A DNA stretch of 64,000 nucleotides from Halobacteria archaeon (lineage in GTDB: Archaea > Methanobacteriota_B > Thermococci > Methanofastidiosales > NM3). Made by a program: the position numbers and the translations under genes. A model generated the notes under the pieces. The model was not told where the DNA came from and searched no databases. It was given only the letters and a program-made list of their open reading frames with translations. The stretch covers positions 7,198 through 71,197 of the forward strand of contig DAINBB010000004.1 of the NCBI GenBank assembly GCA_036733165.1, written 5' to 3'. Of the stretch, positions 27,542 through 55,999 are shown piece after piece. Positions within the stretch are counted from its first letter, which is position 1, and the number at the start of each line of letters is the position of its first letter.

Positions 27542-27727
27542 ATGGAAAGAAAGGGACTTTCGGAGTCTTTACGAGGTTACAGAAAAGTACTTAAACTGAC
27601 AAAGAAACCAGACAGAAAGGAGTTTATGCAAACGGCAAAGATATGCGCGTTGGGCATAGTATTGGTGGCAATCGTAGGCTTTGTTATCAAGCTTGTGTCA
27701 TCATTGATCCAAGGAACAACATTCTAG
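27542..27727 (+). CDS. secE: Preprotein translocase subunit SecE (Sec61-gamma)
   Basis: 61 aa, basic N-terminus plus a single TM helix 'ICALGIVLVAIVGFVIKLV'. Conserved position upstream of spt5-rpl11. Confidence 0.8.
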   Translation: MERKGLSESLRGYRKVLKLTKKPDRKEFMQTAKICALGIVLVAIVGFVIKLVSSLIQGTTF

Positions 27728-27741
27728 ATAGTGTGAAGTAT

Positions 27742-28206
27742 ATGGAACCTGAATACTCTATCTTTATTTTAAAGACGACAATGAATCAGGAAAGAAATGT
27801 AGCGACGATACTCGAGGAAAAGATCAAGAATAAGGGTATAAAGGTCTCTGCGATTCTTGCACCGGAAAGTTTAAAAGGGTACATATTCATTGAAGCCATC
27901 GACGAGGGTGCGGTACAGGAAGCAATAGACGGTCTGAAGAACGTGCGGGGAATACTTCCTGGACATGTTCCGTTCAACGAGGTTGAAAACTTCTTCGAAG
28001 ACAAACCCGCTGTCGAAGGCATCAAACCTGGTGACATAATAGAGCTCGTTGCCGGACCGTTCAAGGGCGAGAAGGCAAAGGTCATACGCATCGACGAAGG
28101 TAAGGAAGAACTTACTGTCGAGCTTCTTGAGGTCACAATACCAATTCCTGTCACCGTTAATGGAAGTTACGTTAGGATTATAGAGAAGAAAACAAAGGAA
28201 GAATAG
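27742..28206 (+). CDS. spt5: Transcription elongation factor Spt5 (NusG)
   Basis: NGN domain 'IFILKTTMNQERNVATIL', KOW motif 'GDIIELVAGPFKGEKAKV'. The listed ORF (27643) runs back into secE; start taken at the in-frame ATG ~27742. Confidence 0.85.
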   Translation: MEPEYSIFILKTTMNQERNVATILEEKIKNKGIKVSAILAPESLKGYIFIEAIDEGAVQEAIDGLKNVRGILPGHVPFNEVENFFEDKPAVEGIKPGDIIELVAGPFKGEKAKVIRIDEGKEELTVELLEVTIPIPVTVNGSYVRIIEKKTKEE

Positions 28207-28218
28207 GTGAGAGAATAG

Positions 28219-28689
28219 ATGGCACAATCCGTAAAGACGCTGGTAGATGGTGGTAAGGCATCTGCTGGGCCCCCTCTGGGACCAGCGCTGGGACCCCTTG
28301 GTGTACCTGTTCCAAAGGTTGTACAGGCAATAAACGATAAGACCAAGGACTTCAACGGTATGAAGGTTCCAGTGACCATCACCGTGGATGACAAGAGGAA
28401 CTTCGAGATAGAGGTGGGCACCCCGCCTACCACAGCACTACTGAAGAAAGAGTTGGGCATCGAGAAGGGCCCACAGAATCCTGGCGCCGAGAGCGGGGGA
28501 AATCTGAACTTTGAATCCATAGTCAAAATAGCCGGGATGAAAAAGGACAGCCTGTTGTCCTATGATATGAAGAGCGCTGCGAAGGAAGTGCTCGGTGCTG
28601 GCATACCAATGAGTATGACAGTTGACGATAAACCAATAAAACAAGTTCAAAAGGAAATCGACGAAGGCAAGTACGACGAGTACTTTTAG
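28219..28689 (+). CDS. rpl11: 50S ribosomal protein L11 (uL11)
   Basis: 'GGKASAGPPLGPALGPLGV', 'PVTITV'. Confidence 0.95.
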   Translation: MAQSVKTLVDGGKASAGPPLGPALGPLGVPVPKVVQAINDKTKDFNGMKVPVTITVDDKRNFEIEVGTPPTTALLKKELGIEKGPQNPGAESGGNLNFESIVKIAGMKKDSLLSYDMKSAAKEVLGAGIPMSMTVDDKPIKQVQKEIDEGKYDEYF

Positions 28690-28730
28690 ACTTCAAAGGG
28701 AGCGTAGCAACAACAAGGAGGTGTTATACC

Positions 28731-29363
28731 TTGATAGAGGCAATAACACGAGGGGTGAAGGAGGCTAGAGAGAAATCAAAGCCGCGAAACTTCACGCAAT
28801 CCTTTGAACTTATAACAAATCTAAAAGAGGTCGACATCAAGAAGCCTGAGTTCAAGATCAGGCAAGAAGTGGCACTGCCCAATGGTAGAGGCAAGCCCGT
28901 CAAAGTGGCTGTCATTGCCGAAAGGGACATGGCACTGAAGGCCAAGGAACTTGGACTTGATGTCATAGAGGATTTGGATACGTTCTCAGGGAACAAGCGT
29001 GAAGCACGTAAGTTCGCGAACAATCATGATTTCTTCATAGCCCAAGCAGACCTGATGCCAACAATTGGTAAGGCGCTTGGACCAATCCTTGCCCCAAGAG
29101 GAAAGATGCCTAAGCCAATGCCACCAACGGCACCGTTGGAGGGCATAATTAGCAATCTAGACAAAACAGTGAAAATCGACATGAAAAAGGCTCCAGTGGT
29201 GCAGGTCCTCATAGGGTCCGAATCACTGACCGATGAGCAGGTTGCAGAGAACGCTATGGCTATTTTGGGCGTCATTGAAAGAAAGTACGAACGTGGACTG
29301 GCACATGTAAAATCGATATTCATCAAGACTACCATGGGAGAGTCCATCAAGGTGGAGGTGTGA
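28731..29363 (+). CDS. rpl1: 50S ribosomal protein L1 (uL1)
   Basis: 'FDLI...GKALGP.LAPRGKMP', typical position after L11. Non-ATG (TTG) start. Confidence 0.9.
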   Translation: MIEAITRGVKEAREKSKPRNFTQSFELITNLKEVDIKKPEFKIRQEVALPNGRGKPVKVAVIAERDMALKAKELGLDVIEDLDTFSGNKREARKFANNHDFFIAQADLMPTIGKALGPILAPRGKMPKPMPPTAPLEGIISNLDKTVKIDMKKAPVVQVLIGSESLTDEQVAENAMAILGVIERKYERGLAHVKSIFIKTTMGESIKVEV

Positions 29364-29367
29364 GCAT

Positions 29368-30384
29368 ATGGCGCACGTTGCAGCTTGGAAGATTAAGGAA
29401 GTCAAGGAGCTCAAGGAAGCGATTGATTCACACCCAGTGGTCGGTATCGTTGACATAAGCGGGATCGCCGCAAGGCAACTGCAGTCGATGAGAAACGGAT
29501 TCCACGAGAATGTCCAGATTAGGACAGCCAGGAACACCCTTCTTAAAATAGCGATCGAAGATGCGGATAACGAGAGTGTGAGAGGCCTATCGGAACATAT
29601 CAGTGGAGGTTCTTCACTGGTCCTGACCGATATGAACCCCTACAGGCTCTACAAGTTGTTCGAGAAGGGAAAGACCAGCGCACCTGCAAAGGGTGGCGAA
29701 ACCTGTCCGAAAGACATAACCATCGAGAAGGGAGACACTGGATTTCCACCTGGCCCTCTGGTAGGCGAGATGCAAAGGGTAGGCATACCCGCTGCGATCG
29801 AAGGAGGAAAGATCGTTGTGAAGAAGAACCATGTGCTGTTGCACGAAGGGGACGAGATAACCCCTGAAGTGGCCGCCATTCTTGGAAAACTGGACATTGA
29901 ACCACTCGAAGTAGGCCTAAATCTTTATGCCGTATACGAAGAGGGATTCATATTCAATGCCAAGGACCTGGCGATAGACGAAGAGGCAATAAAAAGCCAA
30001 TTCGCTCTGGCATATTCACAATCGTTCAATCTTGCAATGAACGCAGCCATACCGACCAAGGACACTATTGGCCTGCTTATTACACTGGCCTTCAGCAATG
30101 CAAGGAATCTTGCCCTAAACGCCAATATCATCAATGATGAAACTTTGCCATTGATAATCTCCAAGGGATACTCGGAGATGTTATCGCTGGCAAGAGCGTT
30201 GGACGACCAATCGCTTGATGATGATCTGAAGGACAAAGTGGGATCCTTTGCGGCTGCCGCCGCTTCGACACAGACGCCAAAGGAAGACAAATCCGAAGAA
30301 GGGACCAGTGAGGAAGAGTCCAAAGAGGAAGAAGAGGCCCCCGAGGAGGAATCCATGGGTGGACTTGACGCCCTGTTTGGGTAG
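29368..30384 (+). CDS. rplP0: 50S ribosomal protein L10 / acidic P0 (uL10)
   Basis: Conserved N-terminus '[15 protein letters not shown]'. Acidic tail ending '[13 protein letters not shown]'. Confidence 0.9.
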
Positions 30385-30407
30385 TTATGATAATAGGAGG
30401 TATTGAA

Positions 30408-30719
30408 ATGGAGTATATATACGCCGCAATGATTTTGCACGCTTCAGCAAAGGAGATCACTGAGGACAACGTGAAGAAGATCCTCGAGGCAGCTGGTGTG
30501 GACGTCGACGAGGCGAGGGTAAAGGCACTTGTTGCATCCCTTGAGAACATCGACATCGATGATGCCATCAAGACAGCTGCAATGCCAATGGCCGCCGCAG
30601 CGCCTGCAGCCGCATCTCCGGCCGCATCACAGGATGCTTCAGCTGAGGAAGAAGAGGAAGAAGAGGAAGAAGCTTCAGAGGAAGAGGCACTCGAAGGACT
30701 TGGTGCTCTCTTCGGTTGA
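30408..30719 (+). CDS. rpl12: 50S ribosomal stalk protein L12 / P1
   Basis: '[11 protein letters not shown]...' Ala/Glu-rich tail ending '[13 protein letters not shown]'. RBS GGAGG 8 nt upstream of this ATG. Confidence 0.9.
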
Positions 30720-30800: not shown

Positions 30801-31065
30801 TATTTTTCAATCCTCAACAATAATTTTTCTAGTTAATATAGATCGATTTTGTTAATTCATAGGGATGACTATCTTTTGGTGATGGGCCTTGGAAATTATC
30901 AATAACAGATGATAATATTACATATGATATGCATCATGAGAATATATATTATTTATTTAACATGGATGTATTATCCATCCGCCTTACATGTACGGGAGAG
31001 ACTATAAGTTGCTCCAAATCAATCACTTCGTAGAAAAACAATTTTTAGAACTTAGGAGGAATAAT

Positions 31066-31719
31066 ATGTCAGAAAAAGAGCTTTTCGCAAAGCTTAACAC
31101 AGCCGTCGTCAAGGGAGACAACGTCGGTATCCAGGGCATCTGCAAAGAGGTCCTGGACAGTGGGGTCGACCCCTACCGCGCCCTCATCGAAGGCTGTGCC
31201 GAGGGAATGAGGGTCGTCTCGGACAAGTACGACAAGAAAGAGATGTTCGTACCTCAGATCCTTCTCTCGTCAAGGGCCATGTACGCCGCGATGGACGTGC
31301 TCAAGCCCCATATAGAGACGGACGAGACCACCGTCACGGGCAAGATCGTCCTCGGCACCGTGGAGGGCGACATCCACGACATAGGGAAAAACATCGTCAA
31401 GCTGCTGCTCGAGGTGGCCGGATTCGAGGTCTTCGACCTCGGAAGGAGCGTACCGCTCCAGAGCTTCGTCGAGACGGCGAGGGAGAAGAGCGCGGACATC
31501 ATAGGGATGTCGGCCCTGATGTCGACGTCCATGCTCGGCATGCCCGAAGTCATAGAGATGCTCAAGAACGCGGGGATACGCGACCAGGTCAAGGTCATGA
31601 TAGGCGGGGCCCCGATAACCGAGCAGTACAAGGACAAGATAGGGGCCGACGGATTCGCCACCAACGGTCCGGGGGCGATAAAGCTGGCAGAGGGCCTGAT
31701 GAAGGAGAAGGGGGCGTGA
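31066..31719 (+). CDS. Methyltransferase cognate corrinoid protein (MtaC/MtbC/MtsB-like, B12-binding)
   Basis: B12-binding 'D-x-H-x-x-G' motif 'VEGDIHDIGKN', 'GMSALMS', N-terminal helical cap. RBS 'aggagga' before the ATG at 31066. The gene is visibly GC-richer (~60%) than its flanks. Confidence 0.85.
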   Translation: MSEKELFAKLNTAVVKGDNVGIQGICKEVLDSGVDPYRALIEGCAEGMRVVSDKYDKKEMFVPQILLSSRAMYAAMDVLKPHIETDETTVTGKIVLGTVEGDIHDIGKNIVKLLLEVAGFEVFDLGRSVPLQSFVETAREKSADIIGMSALMSTSMLGMPEVIEMLKNAGIRDQVKVMIGGAPITEQYKDKIGADGFATNGPGAIKLAEGLMKEKGA

Positions 31720-31722
31720 AGT

Positions 31723-32778
31723 ATGGAGGTATCCCAGAGATGGCTCAGCTTCCTCAGGGGCGAGGAGGTCGACAGACCGCCGGTCTTTCCTTTATCACAG
31801 GGGCACTGTGCCAAGATCATGGGCGCGCCCAATCTCGGTGACTACTATACAAAACCAAAGTTCAATGTAGAGGCGCAGATTATAGCACGAGAGATGTATG
31901 GCTATGACCAGCCACCAACTTTCATAGAGCCAGGATATGGGTGCGAATGTTGGGGGGGCAAGGTCCTACAACCATACAATCCAAAGATGGGGGCTCCGGT
32001 ACCTATTAGGCCCGCCTGTCTGACACCAGAAGAGTTGGAGAAGGTCGACATACCAGACCCAAGGACAGCAAGTTGGATGCCAGAGTATAGGGAAATGATG
32101 AGACTGGCAATTGAGAAGAATCAGAAACCATACCCCATCATACCTGGAGGCTTCATTTCAACGACAGCGCCGATGTTAGTCCCAATGGAGACCTTTATGA
32201 TATGGTTGATGGAAGCACCAGACCTAGCCCACAAGGCGCTTTCAAAAACGGCGGAATTCGGAATATCCCTGGTCGAGTCCTTTGTAGAGGACTTTGGCAA
32301 CGATACATGGTATCCATTTGAAGGCACGCCGACCGACTCCAATGTGTTGATAGATCCAAACATGTTCGCTGAATTCCCCTTGAGATATGCCAAAAGGCTA
32401 AATGAGAAAATAGTGGACATGGGCCTGTCCATATGGATACACTGGTGCTCAGACCATAGTGGCAACATGAAGGCGGGACATGTGCATAGCATGCCTGTTG
32501 GGCCGGAAGGATTCATAAATATGGGTCCAGAGGTTCCAATGGATGTCCAGGCTGAAAAGCTGGGAGATAAATACAGACTAGTCGGAAATATCAATCCGCC
32601 TCTCATTATGTCTGCCGAGTTCGATGAATGGCAAGACATATGCCTCAAGAATATCGAGGAAGGCACAAAGGCAAAGATGGGATACGCGCTTGGCGTGGGT
32701 TGCGAACTTCCACCGCCGGCCCCTCCGTCAAATGTGTTCGGCATGGTCAAGGCAGCAGAGGAATATGGAAGACGTTGA
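31723..32778 (+). CDS. Methylcobamide:CoM methyltransferase-like protein (MtaA/MtbA/MtsA family, URO-D fold)
   Basis: 'RWLSFLRGEEVDRPPVFPL' aligns with the MtaA N-terminus 'RLLAALKGEPVDKVPVCSV'. Zn ligands conserved ('IHWCSDH', 'GVGCELPPP'). 3 nt after the corrinoid gene stop. Confidence 0.8.
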   Translation: MEVSQRWLSFLRGEEVDRPPVFPLSQGHCAKIMGAPNLGDYYTKPKFNVEAQIIAREMYGYDQPPTFIEPGYGCECWGGKVLQPYNPKMGAPVPIRPACLTPEELEKVDIPDPRTASWMPEYREMMRLAIEKNQKPYPIIPGGFISTTAPMLVPMETFMIWLMEAPDLAHKALSKTAEFGISLVESFVEDFGNDTWYPFEGTPTDSNVLIDPNMFAEFPLRYAKRLNEKIVDMGLSIWIHWCSDHSGNMKAGHVHSMPVGPEGFINMGPEVPMDVQAEKLGDKYRLVGNINPPLIMSAEFDEWQDICLKNIEEGTKAKMGYALGVGCELPPPAPPSNVFGMVKAAEEYGRR

Positions 32779-32848
32779 TCTTCCTTTATCTTTTTTTATT
32801 CGAACTAAAAAACATGTTTCTAGTAATTAAACTAAGATCAAATGTCCT

Positions 32849-33175
32849 CTAGATGGTGTCGTAATACTTGGAAAAGGTATTTGACATGCGTTCTATTCCT
32901 CTTCCGCTCATGGTGCCGGCCAATGGGAATTCCTGATCGCATTTTGGGCATCTGGCCAATTTACATCCCGAGGCTGATCTTGCACACCCGGAACATGCTA
33001 TCGCCCTGCCGTAAATTATGTTGAAAACAAAACCACATTTCGGACATTTCAGAGTTTTGGAAGATTCCGGTACATTGATTCCCTTAGATGTCCTCATCTT
33101 GTCAATGAATCGGTCATAGTATGCAGGATCCCTATATTCTGTATTTTCAATCTTCTTCATGGATCTTGTTTTCAT
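32849..33175 (-). CDS. Zinc-ribbon protein, hypothetical
   Basis: 'CPKCGFVFN...CSGCARSASGCKLARCPKCDQEF': three CxxC pairs. No other motif. Confidence 0.45.
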   Translation of the reverse strand: MKTRSMKKIENTEYRDPAYYDRFIDKMRTSKGINVPESSKTLKCPKCGFVFNIIYGRAIACSGCARSASGCKLARCPKCDQEFPLAGTMSGRGIERMSNTFSKYYDTI

Positions 33176-33279: not shown

Positions 33280-33651
33280 CTAAAAAAATAGATAGGTCAA
33301 GGGACCTTTACGAGGTTTGTATATGCCAGCACGTTCTCCAAAGGCGTCCTTGGGGACAGACCACAGCCCGGCGCCAGCACCCTCTACACCGTCATCTATG
33401 CATTGCTGCGCCTCCGCCTCAACAGTAAGACAAAATGGCACTCTGACGCTCCCTATACCTGCATGTTCCCATGCGCCATAGGCAAGGTCTGCCATCTTAT
33501 TGGCGTTCTTGTGGGCATCCGGCCAATATGACCCCGTCTTTTCCATGAGAGATACAGTACCAGTCTGGAGGGGACAACTGCAGGAGACCCTATCTGTTTC
33601 CTTCCCTTCGAGGGTTCTGATATATCTTTCCTTGGGTGATAGTTTATCCAT
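33280..33651 (-). pseudogene. Truncated N-terminal fragment of a canonical MtaA/MtbA-type methylcobamide:CoM methyltransferase
   Basis: 'LSPKERYIRTLEGKETDRVSCSCPLQTGTVSLMEKTGSYWPDAHKNANKMADLAYGAWEHAGIGSVRVPFCLTVEAEA' is collinear with M. barkeri MtaA residues ~5-100 ('LKTRLLAALKGEPVDKVPVCSVTQTGIVELMD...WPEAH...VRLPYCLTVLVEA'). The ORF stops after 123 aa, and there is no room for the remaining ~220 aa. Confidence 0.6.
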
Positions 33652-53954: not shown

Positions 53955-54028
53955 GCCCTCGTAGTCTAGCTGGATATGACGTCAGCCTGCGGAGCTGAAG
54001 ATCCCGAGTTCGAATCTCGGCGGGGGCG
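53955..54028 (+). tRNA. tRNA-Arg (anticodon GCG)
   Basis: GCCCTCG acceptor stem, D loop with GG, anticodon stem TCAGC/GCTGA with loop CUGCGGA, T arm CCGAG-TTCGAAT-CTCGG, discriminator G. CCA is encoded (to 54031). Confidence 0.85.
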
Positions 54029-54091
54029 CCATGATTCTTTATACTCCCGTTTAGGGCATATCGTTTATAATTATAAAAAAATACAAAGACA

Positions 54092-54724
54092 TCAGATGAG
54101 CTCTGACATCTCGATTAACTTTTCTAATATAAAAACAGGATCGAAATCGGTCAAGCTTTTGTATGACATTATGACTAGAACATCTTTCTTAGCAAAACGC
54201 ATTTCGATATATGTATAAGATTCCTCTTTTTCGTATCTGGATACTCCAACGTAATACTCAGTTTCATAGCTCGTTGCTTCGGTCCCGGAAGCTGGAACAA
54301 AGGTCCATCCATCACCAAAGGAGAAGTTCTCTTCGATGACATCCAAGGGGTATCTCATTACCAATTGAGTTAAAGTTTCCAACGGTTCGCCATTTTCATC
54401 AGGATGCCAAAATATCGCACACACGTAATCGGAAGGTTCTGGAAGGCCAGAATAATCTGTGAAATCCAAAGGAGTTTTAACGGAAATGAACGTCCAGCCA
54501 TCGTTTGTAGTATAACCTTGAACACTAACAAACTCCCAGCCATCTGCAGGTTTCTCGATGAGAATTGTTTCCATCCACCCAGGTAGCTCATCTTCGGTAA
54601 AGAGAAGATCTTCCAAAGTACCATCGTATAACTCAGCCTCATTGCCACCTATGTTGCCCACGACTGTAATTGACAACAATAGAACTCCAAGTACGGCTAA
54701 GAGACCATATCTTAATTTGGTCAT
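54092..54724 (-). CDS. Hypothetical secreted protein
   Basis: Signal peptide 'MTKLRYGLLAVLGVLLLSITVVG'. Acidic, aromatic-rich body. Lower GC than its flanks. Confidence 0.45.
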   Translation of the reverse strand: MTKLRYGLLAVLGVLLLSITVVGNIGGNEAELYDGTLEDLLFTEDELPGWMETILIEKPADGWEFVSVQGYTTNDGWTFISVKTPLDFTDYSGLPEPSDYVCAIFWHPDENGEPLETLTQLVMRYPLDVIEENFSFGDGWTFVPASGTEATSYETEYYVGVSRYEKEESYTYIEMRFAKKDVLVIMSYKSLTDFDPVFILEKLIEMSELI

Positions 54725-54845
54725 GATATGAAATAGAACTAACAAAATAAATAAATTGTCCCGATTTGGTATTATAATGATGGATTTCTTAGATCTACAG
54801 CCAATCAAGTTACTGGAAGGTGCTTACGCTAGAATTTGATTATAT

Positions 54846-55430
54846 CTATCGAACTGCACCATTCTTGAAGTTGTCGAACCAGTGATCCAATTCTTCATCG
54901 CTATCGGCCTTTAAAATTTTGAAAATCTCATAGGCGAATTCTACAGCTGCTGTTTCATTTGCAGTGACAAACCCGCCATCAACAACCACTTGTGCTTGAA
55001 CATATAGAGAACGTCCATTGTAGCCTTTTTGATTTTGAAACAGTTCCAGACTGTCACCCGTATGTTTTACATGATCAAGAAAACCATGCTTACACAAAAA
55101 GGTTGATGCACCACATATCGCTGCAATGGGAATATCTGATTGTATAGCCGTATGGATAAACTCAGCAATCTCATCATAGTCATTCTCTTCCCAAGAAAGA
55201 CCTCCTGGCAGAATGACAATCGCCACATTGTCTAAATCCTGATAATTATCTATGCAATGATCAACGCTTGCTTTGATGCCGCCCATTGATATCTTAGGGC
55301 AAGTGTCAATCGCGATGGTCTCCACCACATAGTCGGTATAAGAGTTGGTTGCTGCAATAACATAACTTGCCTCCCAGTCACACCAACGGTCAGTTAAAAA
55401 CAGGAGTATCTTATTTTTAGTCCCTTTCAT
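54846..55430 (-). CDS. DJ-1/PfpI-family protein (class I glutamine amidotransferase-like)
   Basis: 'IAAICGASTFL' nucleophile-elbow Cys, 'VILPGG'. Confidence 0.8.
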   Translation of the reverse strand: MKGTKNKILLFLTDRWCDWEASYVIAATNSYTDYVVETIAIDTCPKISMGGIKASVDHCIDNYQDLDNVAIVILPGGLSWEENDYDEIAEFIHTAIQSDIPIAAICGASTFLCKHGFLDHVKHTGDSLELFQNQKGYNGRSLYVQAQVVVDGGFVTANETAAVEFAYEIFKILKADSDEELDHWFDNFKNGAVR

Positions 55431-55804
55431 TACCAACACATCTCTAATACAAATAATCCAAAGTTCAGGTTCCAATATTTCGTTTTATTTCGATATATAT
55501 GTTATGCCACATATACCGTTTCATCACTATAAATATCATATTGCTAAGTTCCTTCAAGGCGCGTAAATTCCATCTGTATGCATTTCTTTGCCGTTTCAGA
55601 CCCTCATCGTTCCGTATCTCCAACTCAGGATCTCCTGTGCCGCAATGGCCAACATCGGCGATGTTCATTTCAATCTTGGAAACGGAGGACAATTTCTTGG
55701 TATTAATCTTGAACATGGCATCCAATATACTATCATCAATATATGAAACAACAGTGTCTCAAAAAAAAGAGAAAAATAAAAAAATTAAGGATATGGACAG
55801 ATCA

Positions 55805-55999
55805 TCATTTCAGGTGTATCTTACCCACTTCGTCCAAATGGAATATCTTTGAACATTCGAAGCATTCCAAGGCATACCCAATGTTCTGACCTGGTGATAA
55901 CGGACCGTGCTTGAAAAGAACGTACACGTCCCCTTCGCAGAACGGACACTTTACATCATCCTTAACATTAGCTAAATTGTATCTTTCAGCGTCTACCAA
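55805..55999 (-). CDS. Small zinc-ribbon protein, hypothetical
   Basis: 64 aa with 'CPFCEG ... CFECSK'. Confidence 0.3.
   Translation of the reverse strand: MVDAERYNLANVKDDVKCPFCEGDVYVLFKHGPLSPGQNIGYALECFECSKIFHLDEVGKIHLK

Follow-up and report, generated by a model that had tools for sequence, protein, structure and literature searches.

Corrinoid genes of methanogens are already known to evolve in concert: in Methanosarcinales the methylamine corrinoid genes mtmC and mtbC do so together with mtmB and mtbB, by gene conversion that is long-lasting (Commun Biol 2018, PMC6053082), and concerted evolution has likewise been described for mtrA (PMC4632066). In two other described systems, MtsA/MtsB (the methylthiol:coenzyme M methyltransferase of Methanosarcina barkeri) and MtpA/MtpC (the methylmercaptopropionate (MMPA):cob(I)alamin methyltransferase of M. 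acetivorans), the substrate-side step is carried out by an enzyme of the MT2 family together with its cognate corrinoid protein (bioRxiv 10.1101/548461), and methyltransferases specific for methylated thiols are reported from Methanofastidiosa (PMC7302380, citing Nobu et al. 2016). Furthermore, GC-biased gene conversion has been described in prokaryotes, where recombining stretches are richer in G and C at third codon positions (GC3; Lassalle et al. 2015, PMC4450053). Here we examine a pair of adjacent genes (31066-32778), one for a corrinoid protein and one for a methyltransferase of the URO-D family, in a 64,000-nt stretch of DNA ("the window") from an archaeon of the Methanofastidiosia (WSA2), which has a GC content of about 48%. 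An earlier note had read the GC-rich corrinoid gene and the start of its partner as foreign DNA grafted onto a resident gene. According to our analysis, the corrinoid gene is probably a long-standing, lineage-wide constant module of a methyltransferase cassette, a module that is homogenised in relatives by recombination between copies, and its GC3 excess is most likely endogenous rather than the mark of a recent import. The two genes and their parts are:

31055-31059, forward strand: GGAGG ribosome-binding site, 6 nt 5' of the ATG at 31066 (read by eye)
31066-31719, forward strand: gene for a methyltransferase-cognate corrinoid (B12-binding) protein, 217 aa (from Pfam, TIGR02370 and motif)
31723-32778, forward strand: gene for a URO-D-family zinc methyltransferase, 351 aa, MtaA/MtsA/MtpA-like but of a distinct subfamily (PF01208, 122 bits, residues 5-348)
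32440-32442, 32446-32448 and 32701-32703, forward strand: predicted zinc ligands H240, C242 and C327, invariant in 20 family members
31100-31785, forward strand: GC3-rich tract from about corrinoid codon 12 to about URO-D codon 21, the 3' end of which may fall anywhere in 31764-31845 (from change-point analysis and sliding GC3)

The corrinoid protein has a helical cap (B12-binding_2, PF02607, 71.7 bits) followed by a Rossmann-type B12-binding domain (PF02310, 93.3 bits), and it contains the cobalt-ligand motif DxHxxG in the form DIHDIG (residues 102-107, 31369-31386), the histidine of which is the lower ligand of the cobalt. Its score against TIGR02370, the model for methyltransferase-cognate corrinoid proteins of the MtmC/MtbC/MttC/MtsB type, is 215.3 bits, exactly equal to the cut-off of 215.3, and it does not reach the cut-offs of the substrate-specific equivalogs MtbC (192 bits vs. 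350), MtgC (192 vs. 370) and MtaC (124 vs. 420). The nearest solved structures are 1y80, 7xcn (a trimethylamine methyltransferase corrinoid protein) and 3ezx (MtmC). The position of the ribosome-binding site, which is conserved in relatives as GGGAGG or GGGGG, supports the 217-aa start, the same start that NCBI uses for an identical protein (P0274), which is assigned there to 'Candidatus Methanofastidiosa archaeon'.

The second gene starts 4 nt after the corrinoid stop codon and forms a two-gene unit with it. The earlier note had called it MtaA-like, which describes well its URO-D fold and its His-x-Cys...Cys motif, whose three residues are predicted to bind zinc by analogy with MtaA, but the protein is not a canonical MtaA. 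Against curated MT2 models it scores 60.6 bits for TIGR01463 (MtaA/CmuA; cut-off 235.4), 42.8 for MtaA_Meth (cut-off 400) and 32.5 for MtbA (cut-off 600), and since it falls below every MtaA/MtbA cut-off it represents a separate subfamily. Its sole match in the PDB is MtaA (4ay7, E 1.6e-10), and only 32 word-sharing relatives were found among 5.8 billion proteins.

As the earlier note had stated, with correct coordinates, the corrinoid gene is rich in GC and especially so at third positions: its GC content is 0.589, the three codon positions being at 0.58, 0.36 and 0.83 (GC3 0.826), which places it first among 43 curated genes of the window, against a mean GC3 of 0.616, a standard deviation of 0.057 and a maximum of 0.72 (z = 3.7). 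All 654-nt segments with a GC content of at least 0.57 in the 64 kb begin within 31024-31417 (segments of this size have a mean of 0.479 and a standard deviation of 0.041), while the best 217-codon stretch of any other gene peaks at a GC3 of 0.79. Codons ending in T make up 4% of the gene, compared with 17% in the background. The genes on either side are lower in GC, as had also been noted (we measured 0.43-0.52), and the intergenic region 5' of the corrinoid gene is AT-rich (0.21-0.34). Within the gene GC3 is 0.45 in codons 1-11 and 0.85 in codons 12-217.

Where this enrichment ends is less easily settled. The URO-D gene has an overall GC3 of 0.55, slightly below background (z -1.1), and in its codon deviations it is similar to ribosomal genes. 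Its first 120 nt have a GC content of 0.60 and a GC3 of 0.75, as opposed to 0.49 and 0.53 in the remainder; counted by codons, GC3 reaches 0.85 over the first 20 codons and 0.75 over the first 40, and codons 1-20 differ from codons 41 onward (Fisher p 0.004). By maximum likelihood GC3 changes at URO-D codon 21 (31785), and the 2-log support interval spans codons 14-41 (31764-31845). Placing the switch inside the gene rather than at the gene border gains 4.7 in log-likelihood, with a permutation p of 0.058 inside the URO-D gene, and the in-gene position is therefore marginal when judged from the window alone. Thus, the proposed run of high GC to about 31840 agrees with the support interval, although the best point lies at 31785 and can barely be told apart from the border. 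The raw GC of this 5' stretch is due in part to amino-acid composition (GC at positions 1 and 2 is 0.53-0.60), and the N-terminal peptide MEVSQRWL.FLR.E..DR is conserved. One may also think of messenger RNA structure as the cause of the GC-rich 5' end, but this was rejected, as no unusually stable structure was found at the junction of the two genes (z -0.59).

The history of the block is clearer from related genomes. Below, L-numbers denote the contigs that were compared: L002 and L013 belong to one related species, and L053, L001, L054, L066, L055 and L065 to the window species itself. The window is identical to JGI contig Ga0116244_10000176 (113.7 kb), and the MAGs GCA_964451685.1 and GCA_035379965.1 are of the window species as well. 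The GlmS protein of the window is 70-75% identical to those of Methanofastidiosa/Methanofastidiosia metagenome-assembled genomes (MAGs) and 58% identical to that of Methanofastidiosum. The window and L002/L013 have in common the gene order FtsZ-SecE-NusG-L11-L1-L10-L12-corrinoid-URO-D, and the DNA of their ribosomal clusters is about 80% identical. When the window is compared with L002, protein identity is 92% for the corrinoid protein, 84-97% for the ribosomal proteins and 66% for the URO-D protein, and identical residues are encoded by identical codons in 61% of cases in the corrinoid gene and in 51-78% in the ribosomal genes. At the L002 locus, GC3 is 0.71 in the corrinoid gene, 0.39 in the URO-D gene and about 0.5 in the flanks, with a change point at URO-D codon 16. 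GC3 in further cassettes of the clade was:

L011: corrinoid gene 0.78, URO-D gene 0.52
L015: corrinoid gene 0.74, URO-D gene 0.52
L064: corrinoid gene 0.78, URO-D gene 0.54
L058: corrinoid gene 0.77, URO-D gene 0.66
L056: corrinoid gene 0.76 (a corrinoid-only contig, too short for the URO-D gene)

No such contrast is seen in L019 (0.48 in the corrinoid gene and 0.54 in the URO-D gene), in L057 (0.60 and 0.57) or in Methanofastidiosum (0.25-0.31 and 0.25-0.30). The rise reaches the first 12-20 or so URO-D codons in the window, in L002, in L011, in L012/L058 and in strain HMET1 of Methanohalarchaeum thermophilum. Since the block, its position after the ribosomal genes and its GC3 step are also present in the related species, they are older than the split of the two species, and since the step is common to cassettes of the clade, a recent graft in the window organism is excluded.

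The same relatives show which part of the cassette is held constant. In the related species two tandem cassettes lie between L12 and a block of zinc-ribbon, mtaA and glmS genes, a place where the window has a single cassette. The L002 and L013 contigs end 86-117 nt into the second corrinoid gene, and L064 joins that gene (copy B) to L015, so that copy B was pieced together from L064 and L015, with orthology set by the neighbouring genes; downstream, L015 has the order zinc-ribbon ORF, mtaA, unknown gene, glmS, which is syntenic with the window. Comparison of the copies gave the following identities:

Corrinoid A vs. B, same genome (relative): 96%
URO-D A vs. B, same genome (relative): 58%
URO-D B vs. 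F (L057), between species: 89%
Corrinoid B vs. F, between species: 85%

A similar arrangement is present, independently, in HMET1 (L010, 3076-13737 of a 1.69-Mb contig), which has three tandem cassettes and a partial corrinoid gene. Its corrinoid genes are 100% identical in DNA over 593-745 nt, a tract that ends 35 nt into the URO-D gene, whereas its URO-D genes are about 66% identical and are themselves mosaics, with blocks of 94-100% identity common to different pairs of copies. GC3 in HMET1 is 0.40 in the corrinoid genes, 0.24-0.30 in the URO-D genes and about 0.28 in the flanks, with 0.40-0.55 in URO-D codons 1-20. Thus, in genomes that have several cassettes the corrinoid copies are homogenised, while the URO-D genes, past their 5' ends, are paralogues of long standing that have diverged. 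At least seven URO-D types (58-89% identical) are found in this small clade, several of them within the same metagenome samples.

For these relatives, the ends of the identical tracts support a boundary that is due to recombination and lies within the 5' part of the URO-D gene. In addition to the HMET1 tract, L002 and L011 share an identical stretch of 267 nt that extends 41 nt into the URO-D gene, to codon 14, after which identity is 72-79%, and in L002 this tract end coincides with the GC3 change point at codon 16. Between L002 and L013, which are of the same species and otherwise identical, there are 15 differences; they are confined to the 3' half of the corrinoid gene and form a patchwork common with other copies. 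Contigs of relatives also break inside a corrinoid gene (L002, L013, L011, L012, L015 and L063), as would be expected for a repeat. In the window, DNA identity to L002 drops from 0.77 to 0.62 past the first 60 nt of the URO-D gene, and residues 1-40 of the URO-D protein share 82% identity with types A, C and D, compared with 64-68% for the rest; the protein is 61-70% identical to every known type. The constant module consists of the corrinoid gene and the first 12-20 or so URO-D codons (the GC-rich block of the window takes in roughly 14-40), and the variable one of the URO-D remainder. Hence, of the junction that the earlier note had placed inside the downstream gene, the recombination part stands, in relatives, with tracts that end 35-41 nt into that gene, while the recent graft does not. 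In fact, it is the URO-D body that is the more anomalous partner of the pair, being 66% identical to its positional counterpart when neighbouring genes are at 84-97%.

We therefore favour an endogenous origin of the block, by homogenisation, and the mechanism may be pictured as follows. Strand exchange would begin in the near-identical corrinoid gene and abort where URO-D homology collapses, just past the conserved N-terminus, so that the boundary of the module would come to lie within the downstream gene. The excess in GC3 would arise within the lineage, as host codon preferences are exaggerated and T-ending codons purged, and its cause could be GC-biased conversion of a tract that has been converted many times, selection for certain codons in the gene of a corrinoid protein that is made in large amounts, or both. 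Biased conversion is suggested by a GC3 excess that follows the tract across the gene border, that the two lineages with homogenised copies show and the other lineages do not, and that opposes the A/T-leaning bias of the ribosomal-protein genes.

Several observations, nevertheless, speak against homogenisation with biased conversion. Of the recently converted URO-D blocks of HMET1, one has a GC3 of 0.35-0.38 vs. 0.25 and the other shows no difference. The extension of high GC3 into the URO-D gene, already marginal in the window, is absent in L015 and L064. The window organism has no visible second cassette, either in the 64 kb, where a second copy of the upstream element described below is also absent, or, at 90% identity or more, in the public protein collection, and five assemblies of the window species run unbroken through the corrinoid gene; ongoing conversion in the window genome is thus unproven, even though its corrinoid GC3 is the highest of all (0.83). 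The identity between L002 and L011, which come from different metagenome samples, could partly reflect assembly chimeras among repeats. Finally, GC3-rich cassettes share an upstream element that the others do not have, so that expression-linked codon selection is confounded with homogenisation. This element is:

30962-31001, forward strand: conserved element of about 40 nt, about 90 nt 5' of the corrinoid start codon

Its core, ATCCATCCGCCTTACATGTACGGGA (30973-30997), contains two short palindromes, GGATG..CATCC and TACATGTA, and is found without mismatches upstream of the corrinoid genes of L002 (copies A and B), L013 (A/B), L059 and L060, and with one or two mismatches in L056 and L058; it is absent 5' of the corrinoid genes that have no GC3 excess (L019 and L057). 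The spacer between the element and the ribosome-binding site is not conserved. A stable RNA hairpin is not supported, as the element has no unusual RNA stability (z +0.27). It has no Rfam match, and it is probably an operator or a promoter-proximal regulatory site common to GC3-rich cassettes.

One may consider that codon-usage selection is the whole explanation, the corrinoid protein being among the most abundant of a methyl-reducing methanogen, in which case the switch would really lie at the gene border, and the high GC3 of the URO-D 5' end would result from chance together with the conserved GC-rich N-terminal peptide. Besides the distribution of the upstream element and the marginal significance of the intragenic extension, such selection would fit the codons themselves: 31 of the 33 NNY codons for Asp, Phe, Asn, Tyr, His and Cys end in C, yet the major Ile codon of the host, ATA, is not replaced by ATC, which is not obviously the outcome of a blind drive towards GC. 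It would also fit a GC3-rich tract that begins only after about codon 11 of the corrinoid gene, as is usual in expressed genes, and a window species that is seemingly single-copy and yet has the highest GC3. On the other hand, the adjacent ribosomal-protein genes are below average in GC3 (0.49-0.57), and the deviations of the corrinoid gene are uncorrelated with theirs (rho -0.15), a dissimilarity that argues against ordinary translational selection. Corrinoid genes should matter equally to Methanofastidiosum, where they lack the excess, and the rise enters the URO-D codons in several loci and in L002 stops with the conversion tract. We thus regard codon selection by itself as a possible but rather improbable account. 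As a side observation, the ribosomal-protein and NusG genes (27643-30719) have a GC3 of 0.46-0.57, under the window gene mean of 0.62, so that the preference of this host for G- or C-ending codons is not strongest in genes that are classically highly expressed.

A second alternative, which is compatible with homogenisation of the corrinoid gene, concerns the other half of the pair: the URO-D body may be a newcomer that was joined to the resident corrinoid gene via homology arms, or a tandem pair may have collapsed. Between L12 on one side and the zinc-ribbon/mtaA/glmS block on the other, the relative carries two tandem cassettes and the window just one, which makes a collapse or swap with the constant module as homology arm plausible, though undated. 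Also in keeping with a swap, the URO-D protein of the window is 66% and 62% identical to its two positional counterparts and at best 70% to any type, when the flanking proteins are at 79-97%; its gene has a GC3 below background, the drop in DNA identity to L002 comes just after the first 60 nt of that gene, and the corrinoid and URO-D trees differ in topology within the clade. However, no donor or orthologue of the window URO-D type was found, so that neither the event nor its date can be demonstrated, and fast divergence of positional orthologues would yield the same numbers. A swap or collapse at this locus is accordingly conceivable, but we would not count on it. More generally, and as a tentative proposal that we think has somewhat better prospects, the corrinoid gene with its operator and about 12-14 partner codons might serve as a portable constant module, joined to a set of URO-D-family substrate methyltransferases that diversify rapidly, and act as a homology arm through which cassettes are duplicated, collapsed and swapped between loci, with the GC3 excess as a footprint of GC-biased conversion in Archaea.

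Much less can be said for horizontal transfer, that is, for a foreign, high-GC corrinoid gene acquired with the 5' end of its partner, for example from Methanomassiliicoccus, and grafted onto a resident mtaA-like gene. Such a graft would account for a corrinoid gene that tops the window in both GC and GC3 and has sharp edges, and for a change point inside the downstream gene. Nevertheless, the pair and its step are present at the syntenic site in L002/L013, with a synonymous divergence that is normal for vertical inheritance, and the gene keeps the codon dialect of its host: ATA accounts for 53% of its Ile codons (56% in the background), AGG for 67% of Arg (61%) and AAG for 79% of Lys (75%), with a correlation of relative codon usage between gene and host background of rho 0.72. 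The host is one of the Methanofastidiosia, not of the Methanomassiliicoccales, and the best matches are not from high-GC Methanomassiliicoccus, a possibility that the earlier note had wanted checked; both proteins have their nearest relatives among clade-mates, next come Methanofastidiosum and UBA9212, followed by Methanomethylicia and Methanohalarchaeum, and no high-GC relative, from Methanomassiliicoccales or elsewhere, is near the top of the matches for either protein. Nor do the two genes have the incongruent histories that such a graft would lead one to expect: although their topologies differ within the clade, the neighbour-joining trees of the corrinoid and URO-D proteins are congruent at depth, where the pair is sister to the Methanofastidiosum versions, with deep identities of about 0.6 each. 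Between 30300 and 34000 a search for mobile-element marks and flanking repeats found only short repeats at chance level, and no tRNA or integrase at the borders. With no high-GC donor found, a foreign origin of the block is very improbable.

An artefact or chance, that is, a chimeric metagenome assembly or a random fluctuation in composition, can hardly be credited at all, for although the window comes from a metagenome contig and contigs of relatives are broken within these genes or close to them, the six separately assembled contigs of the window species, which stem from several samples, show 99.9-100% identity across 31066-31861 and farther on (L054, L055 and L065 are possibly from the same reads, the latter two being NCBI MAG contigs), and the corrinoid gene ranks first in 64 kb with a z of 3.7.

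The contigs of the window species do differ from the window at a few sites in the URO-D gene, close to the following feature:

31952-31958, forward strand: G7 homopolymer inside the URO-D gene, around which the differences between assemblies cluster

Within 31066-32778 the differences of L001, L054, L055 and L065 from the window are T-to-G only, at 31921, 31938, 31980, 31988 and 32017. The one at 31938 turns URO-D codon 72 from TAT into TAG, others alter conserved residues (N86K, M89R), and three of the contigs that bear these changes end at 32022-32023. L001 and L054 have one more difference each from the window, upstream, at 27799 and 26092, respectively. Most likely the cluster near the G7 run is a reproducible, sequence-specific Illumina error, although it may be a real pseudogenised allele. 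Pyrrolysine at the TAG of codon 72 was considered and set aside, as all five differences are T-to-G changes by the G7 run, conserved residues are struck and three contigs end there. A diversity-generating retroelement was likewise rejected, as there is only one type of substitution, and neither a reverse transcriptase nor a template repeat was seen.

Downstream of the URO-D gene there are three further features:

32779-32800, forward strand: T-rich stretch TCTTCCTTTATCTTTTTTTATT right after the URO-D stop codon (read from the letters)
32849-33175, reverse strand: Cys-rich zinc-ribbon ORF, 108 aa, with weak zinc-ribbon Pfam matches and no family assignment
33283-33651, reverse strand: remnant of a canonical MtaA/MtbA-type (MT2) gene, residues 1-84 fused to about 25 C-terminal residues

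The T-rich stretch is likely the end of the two-gene transcription unit, as a putative archaeal oligo-T terminator. The zinc-ribbon ORF is conserved in synteny with L015, where it lies between the cassette and mtaA, and the DNA match with L015 reaches 33209. From the MT2 remnant about 225 codons have been deleted internally, between short repeats of the 'EAEA' type. It matches PRK06252 with 99 bits over residues 1-84 only, and in a tblastn search with the intact 336-aa homologue of L015, residues 1-84 matched 33651-33400 and residues 310-334 matched 33380-33306. The MT2 gene is intact (336 aa) at the syntenic site of L015 and also follows the cassette in Methanofastidiosum, while L001 and L053 have the identical remnant.

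Elsewhere in the window, where the only Rfam families found are three tRNAs, there is a low-GC block (54092-55852; GC 0.37-0.41, GC3 0.37-0.45 vs. 0.62 elsewhere) of three ORFs, one of the DJ-1/PfpI family, that directly abuts a tRNA-Arg(GCG) at 53955-54031. As candidate foreign DNA this block is more conventional than the corrinoid gene. At the window edge an AT-rich ORF (56-553; GC 0.23, GC3 0.13) with weak DUF4145/HEPN-like matches lies beside a tRNA-Arg(CCT) at 868-943.

As to function, the gene pairing and the reported physiology of the lineage suggest that the pair most likely acts as MtsA/MtsB or MtpA/MtpC do. The URO-D enzyme would then take the methyl group of a methylated substrate, which is probably a thiol, and pass it to the corrinoid protein, and the role of the pair would be in H2-dependent methyl-reducing methanogenesis. 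The pairing of near-identical corrinoid proteins with strongly diverged URO-D methyltransferases suggests several substrate specificities that are served by one carrier protein. If the corrinoid module is indeed portable, these "fastidious" methyl-reducing methanogens would have a broader and more modular range of substrates than has been assumed. More generally, a sharp GC or GC3 island with an edge inside a gene need not signal horizontal transfer; in the present case the island shows which part of a modular gene family is homogenised. The cassettes also offer a compact natural test for GC-biased conversion in Archaea, with converted and unconverted DNA side by side and a boundary that can be mapped to within a few codons.

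Concerted evolution of methanogen corrinoid genes is thus documented already, and what is added here are new lineages, a tract confined to the corrinoid gene and a few codons of its divergent partner, and the GC3 excess that accompanies it. As in mtmC and mtbC of Methanosarcinales, paralogous corrinoid genes are near-identical within a genome (A and B are 96% identical when orthologues are at 85%, and those of HMET1 are 100% identical). In Methanosarcinales, however, the MT1 partner is homogenised as well, whereas here the tract comprises the corrinoid gene and about 12-14 codons of a partner that is otherwise 58-78% identical between copies; the lineages are Methanofastidiosia and Methanonatronarchaeia; and a GC3 excess goes with the tract, while in PMC6053082 and PMC4632066 we found no mention of GC content. 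With MtsA/MtsB and MtpA/MtpC the window pair has in common a corrinoid gene that adjoins a gene of the MT2/URO-D family, which in the known systems has the MT1 role, but the URO-D protein of the window belongs to a distinct subfamily, and the likeness proposed here is one of gene pairing and of reported lineage physiology. With the MT2 enzymes MtaA and MtbA it shares the fold and the zinc motif, but it is under all model cut-offs, and a true MtaA-type gene adjoins the cassette in L015 and Methanofastidiosum, where the window has its remnant only. Finally, as in the GC-biased conversion of Lassalle et al., the converted stretch has a GC3 above its surroundings that is independent of, or opposite to, the codon bias of ribosomal-protein genes; that work concerned recombination between strains across genomes, whereas the candidate here, with a putative bias, is conversion between paralogous cassettes in Archaea.

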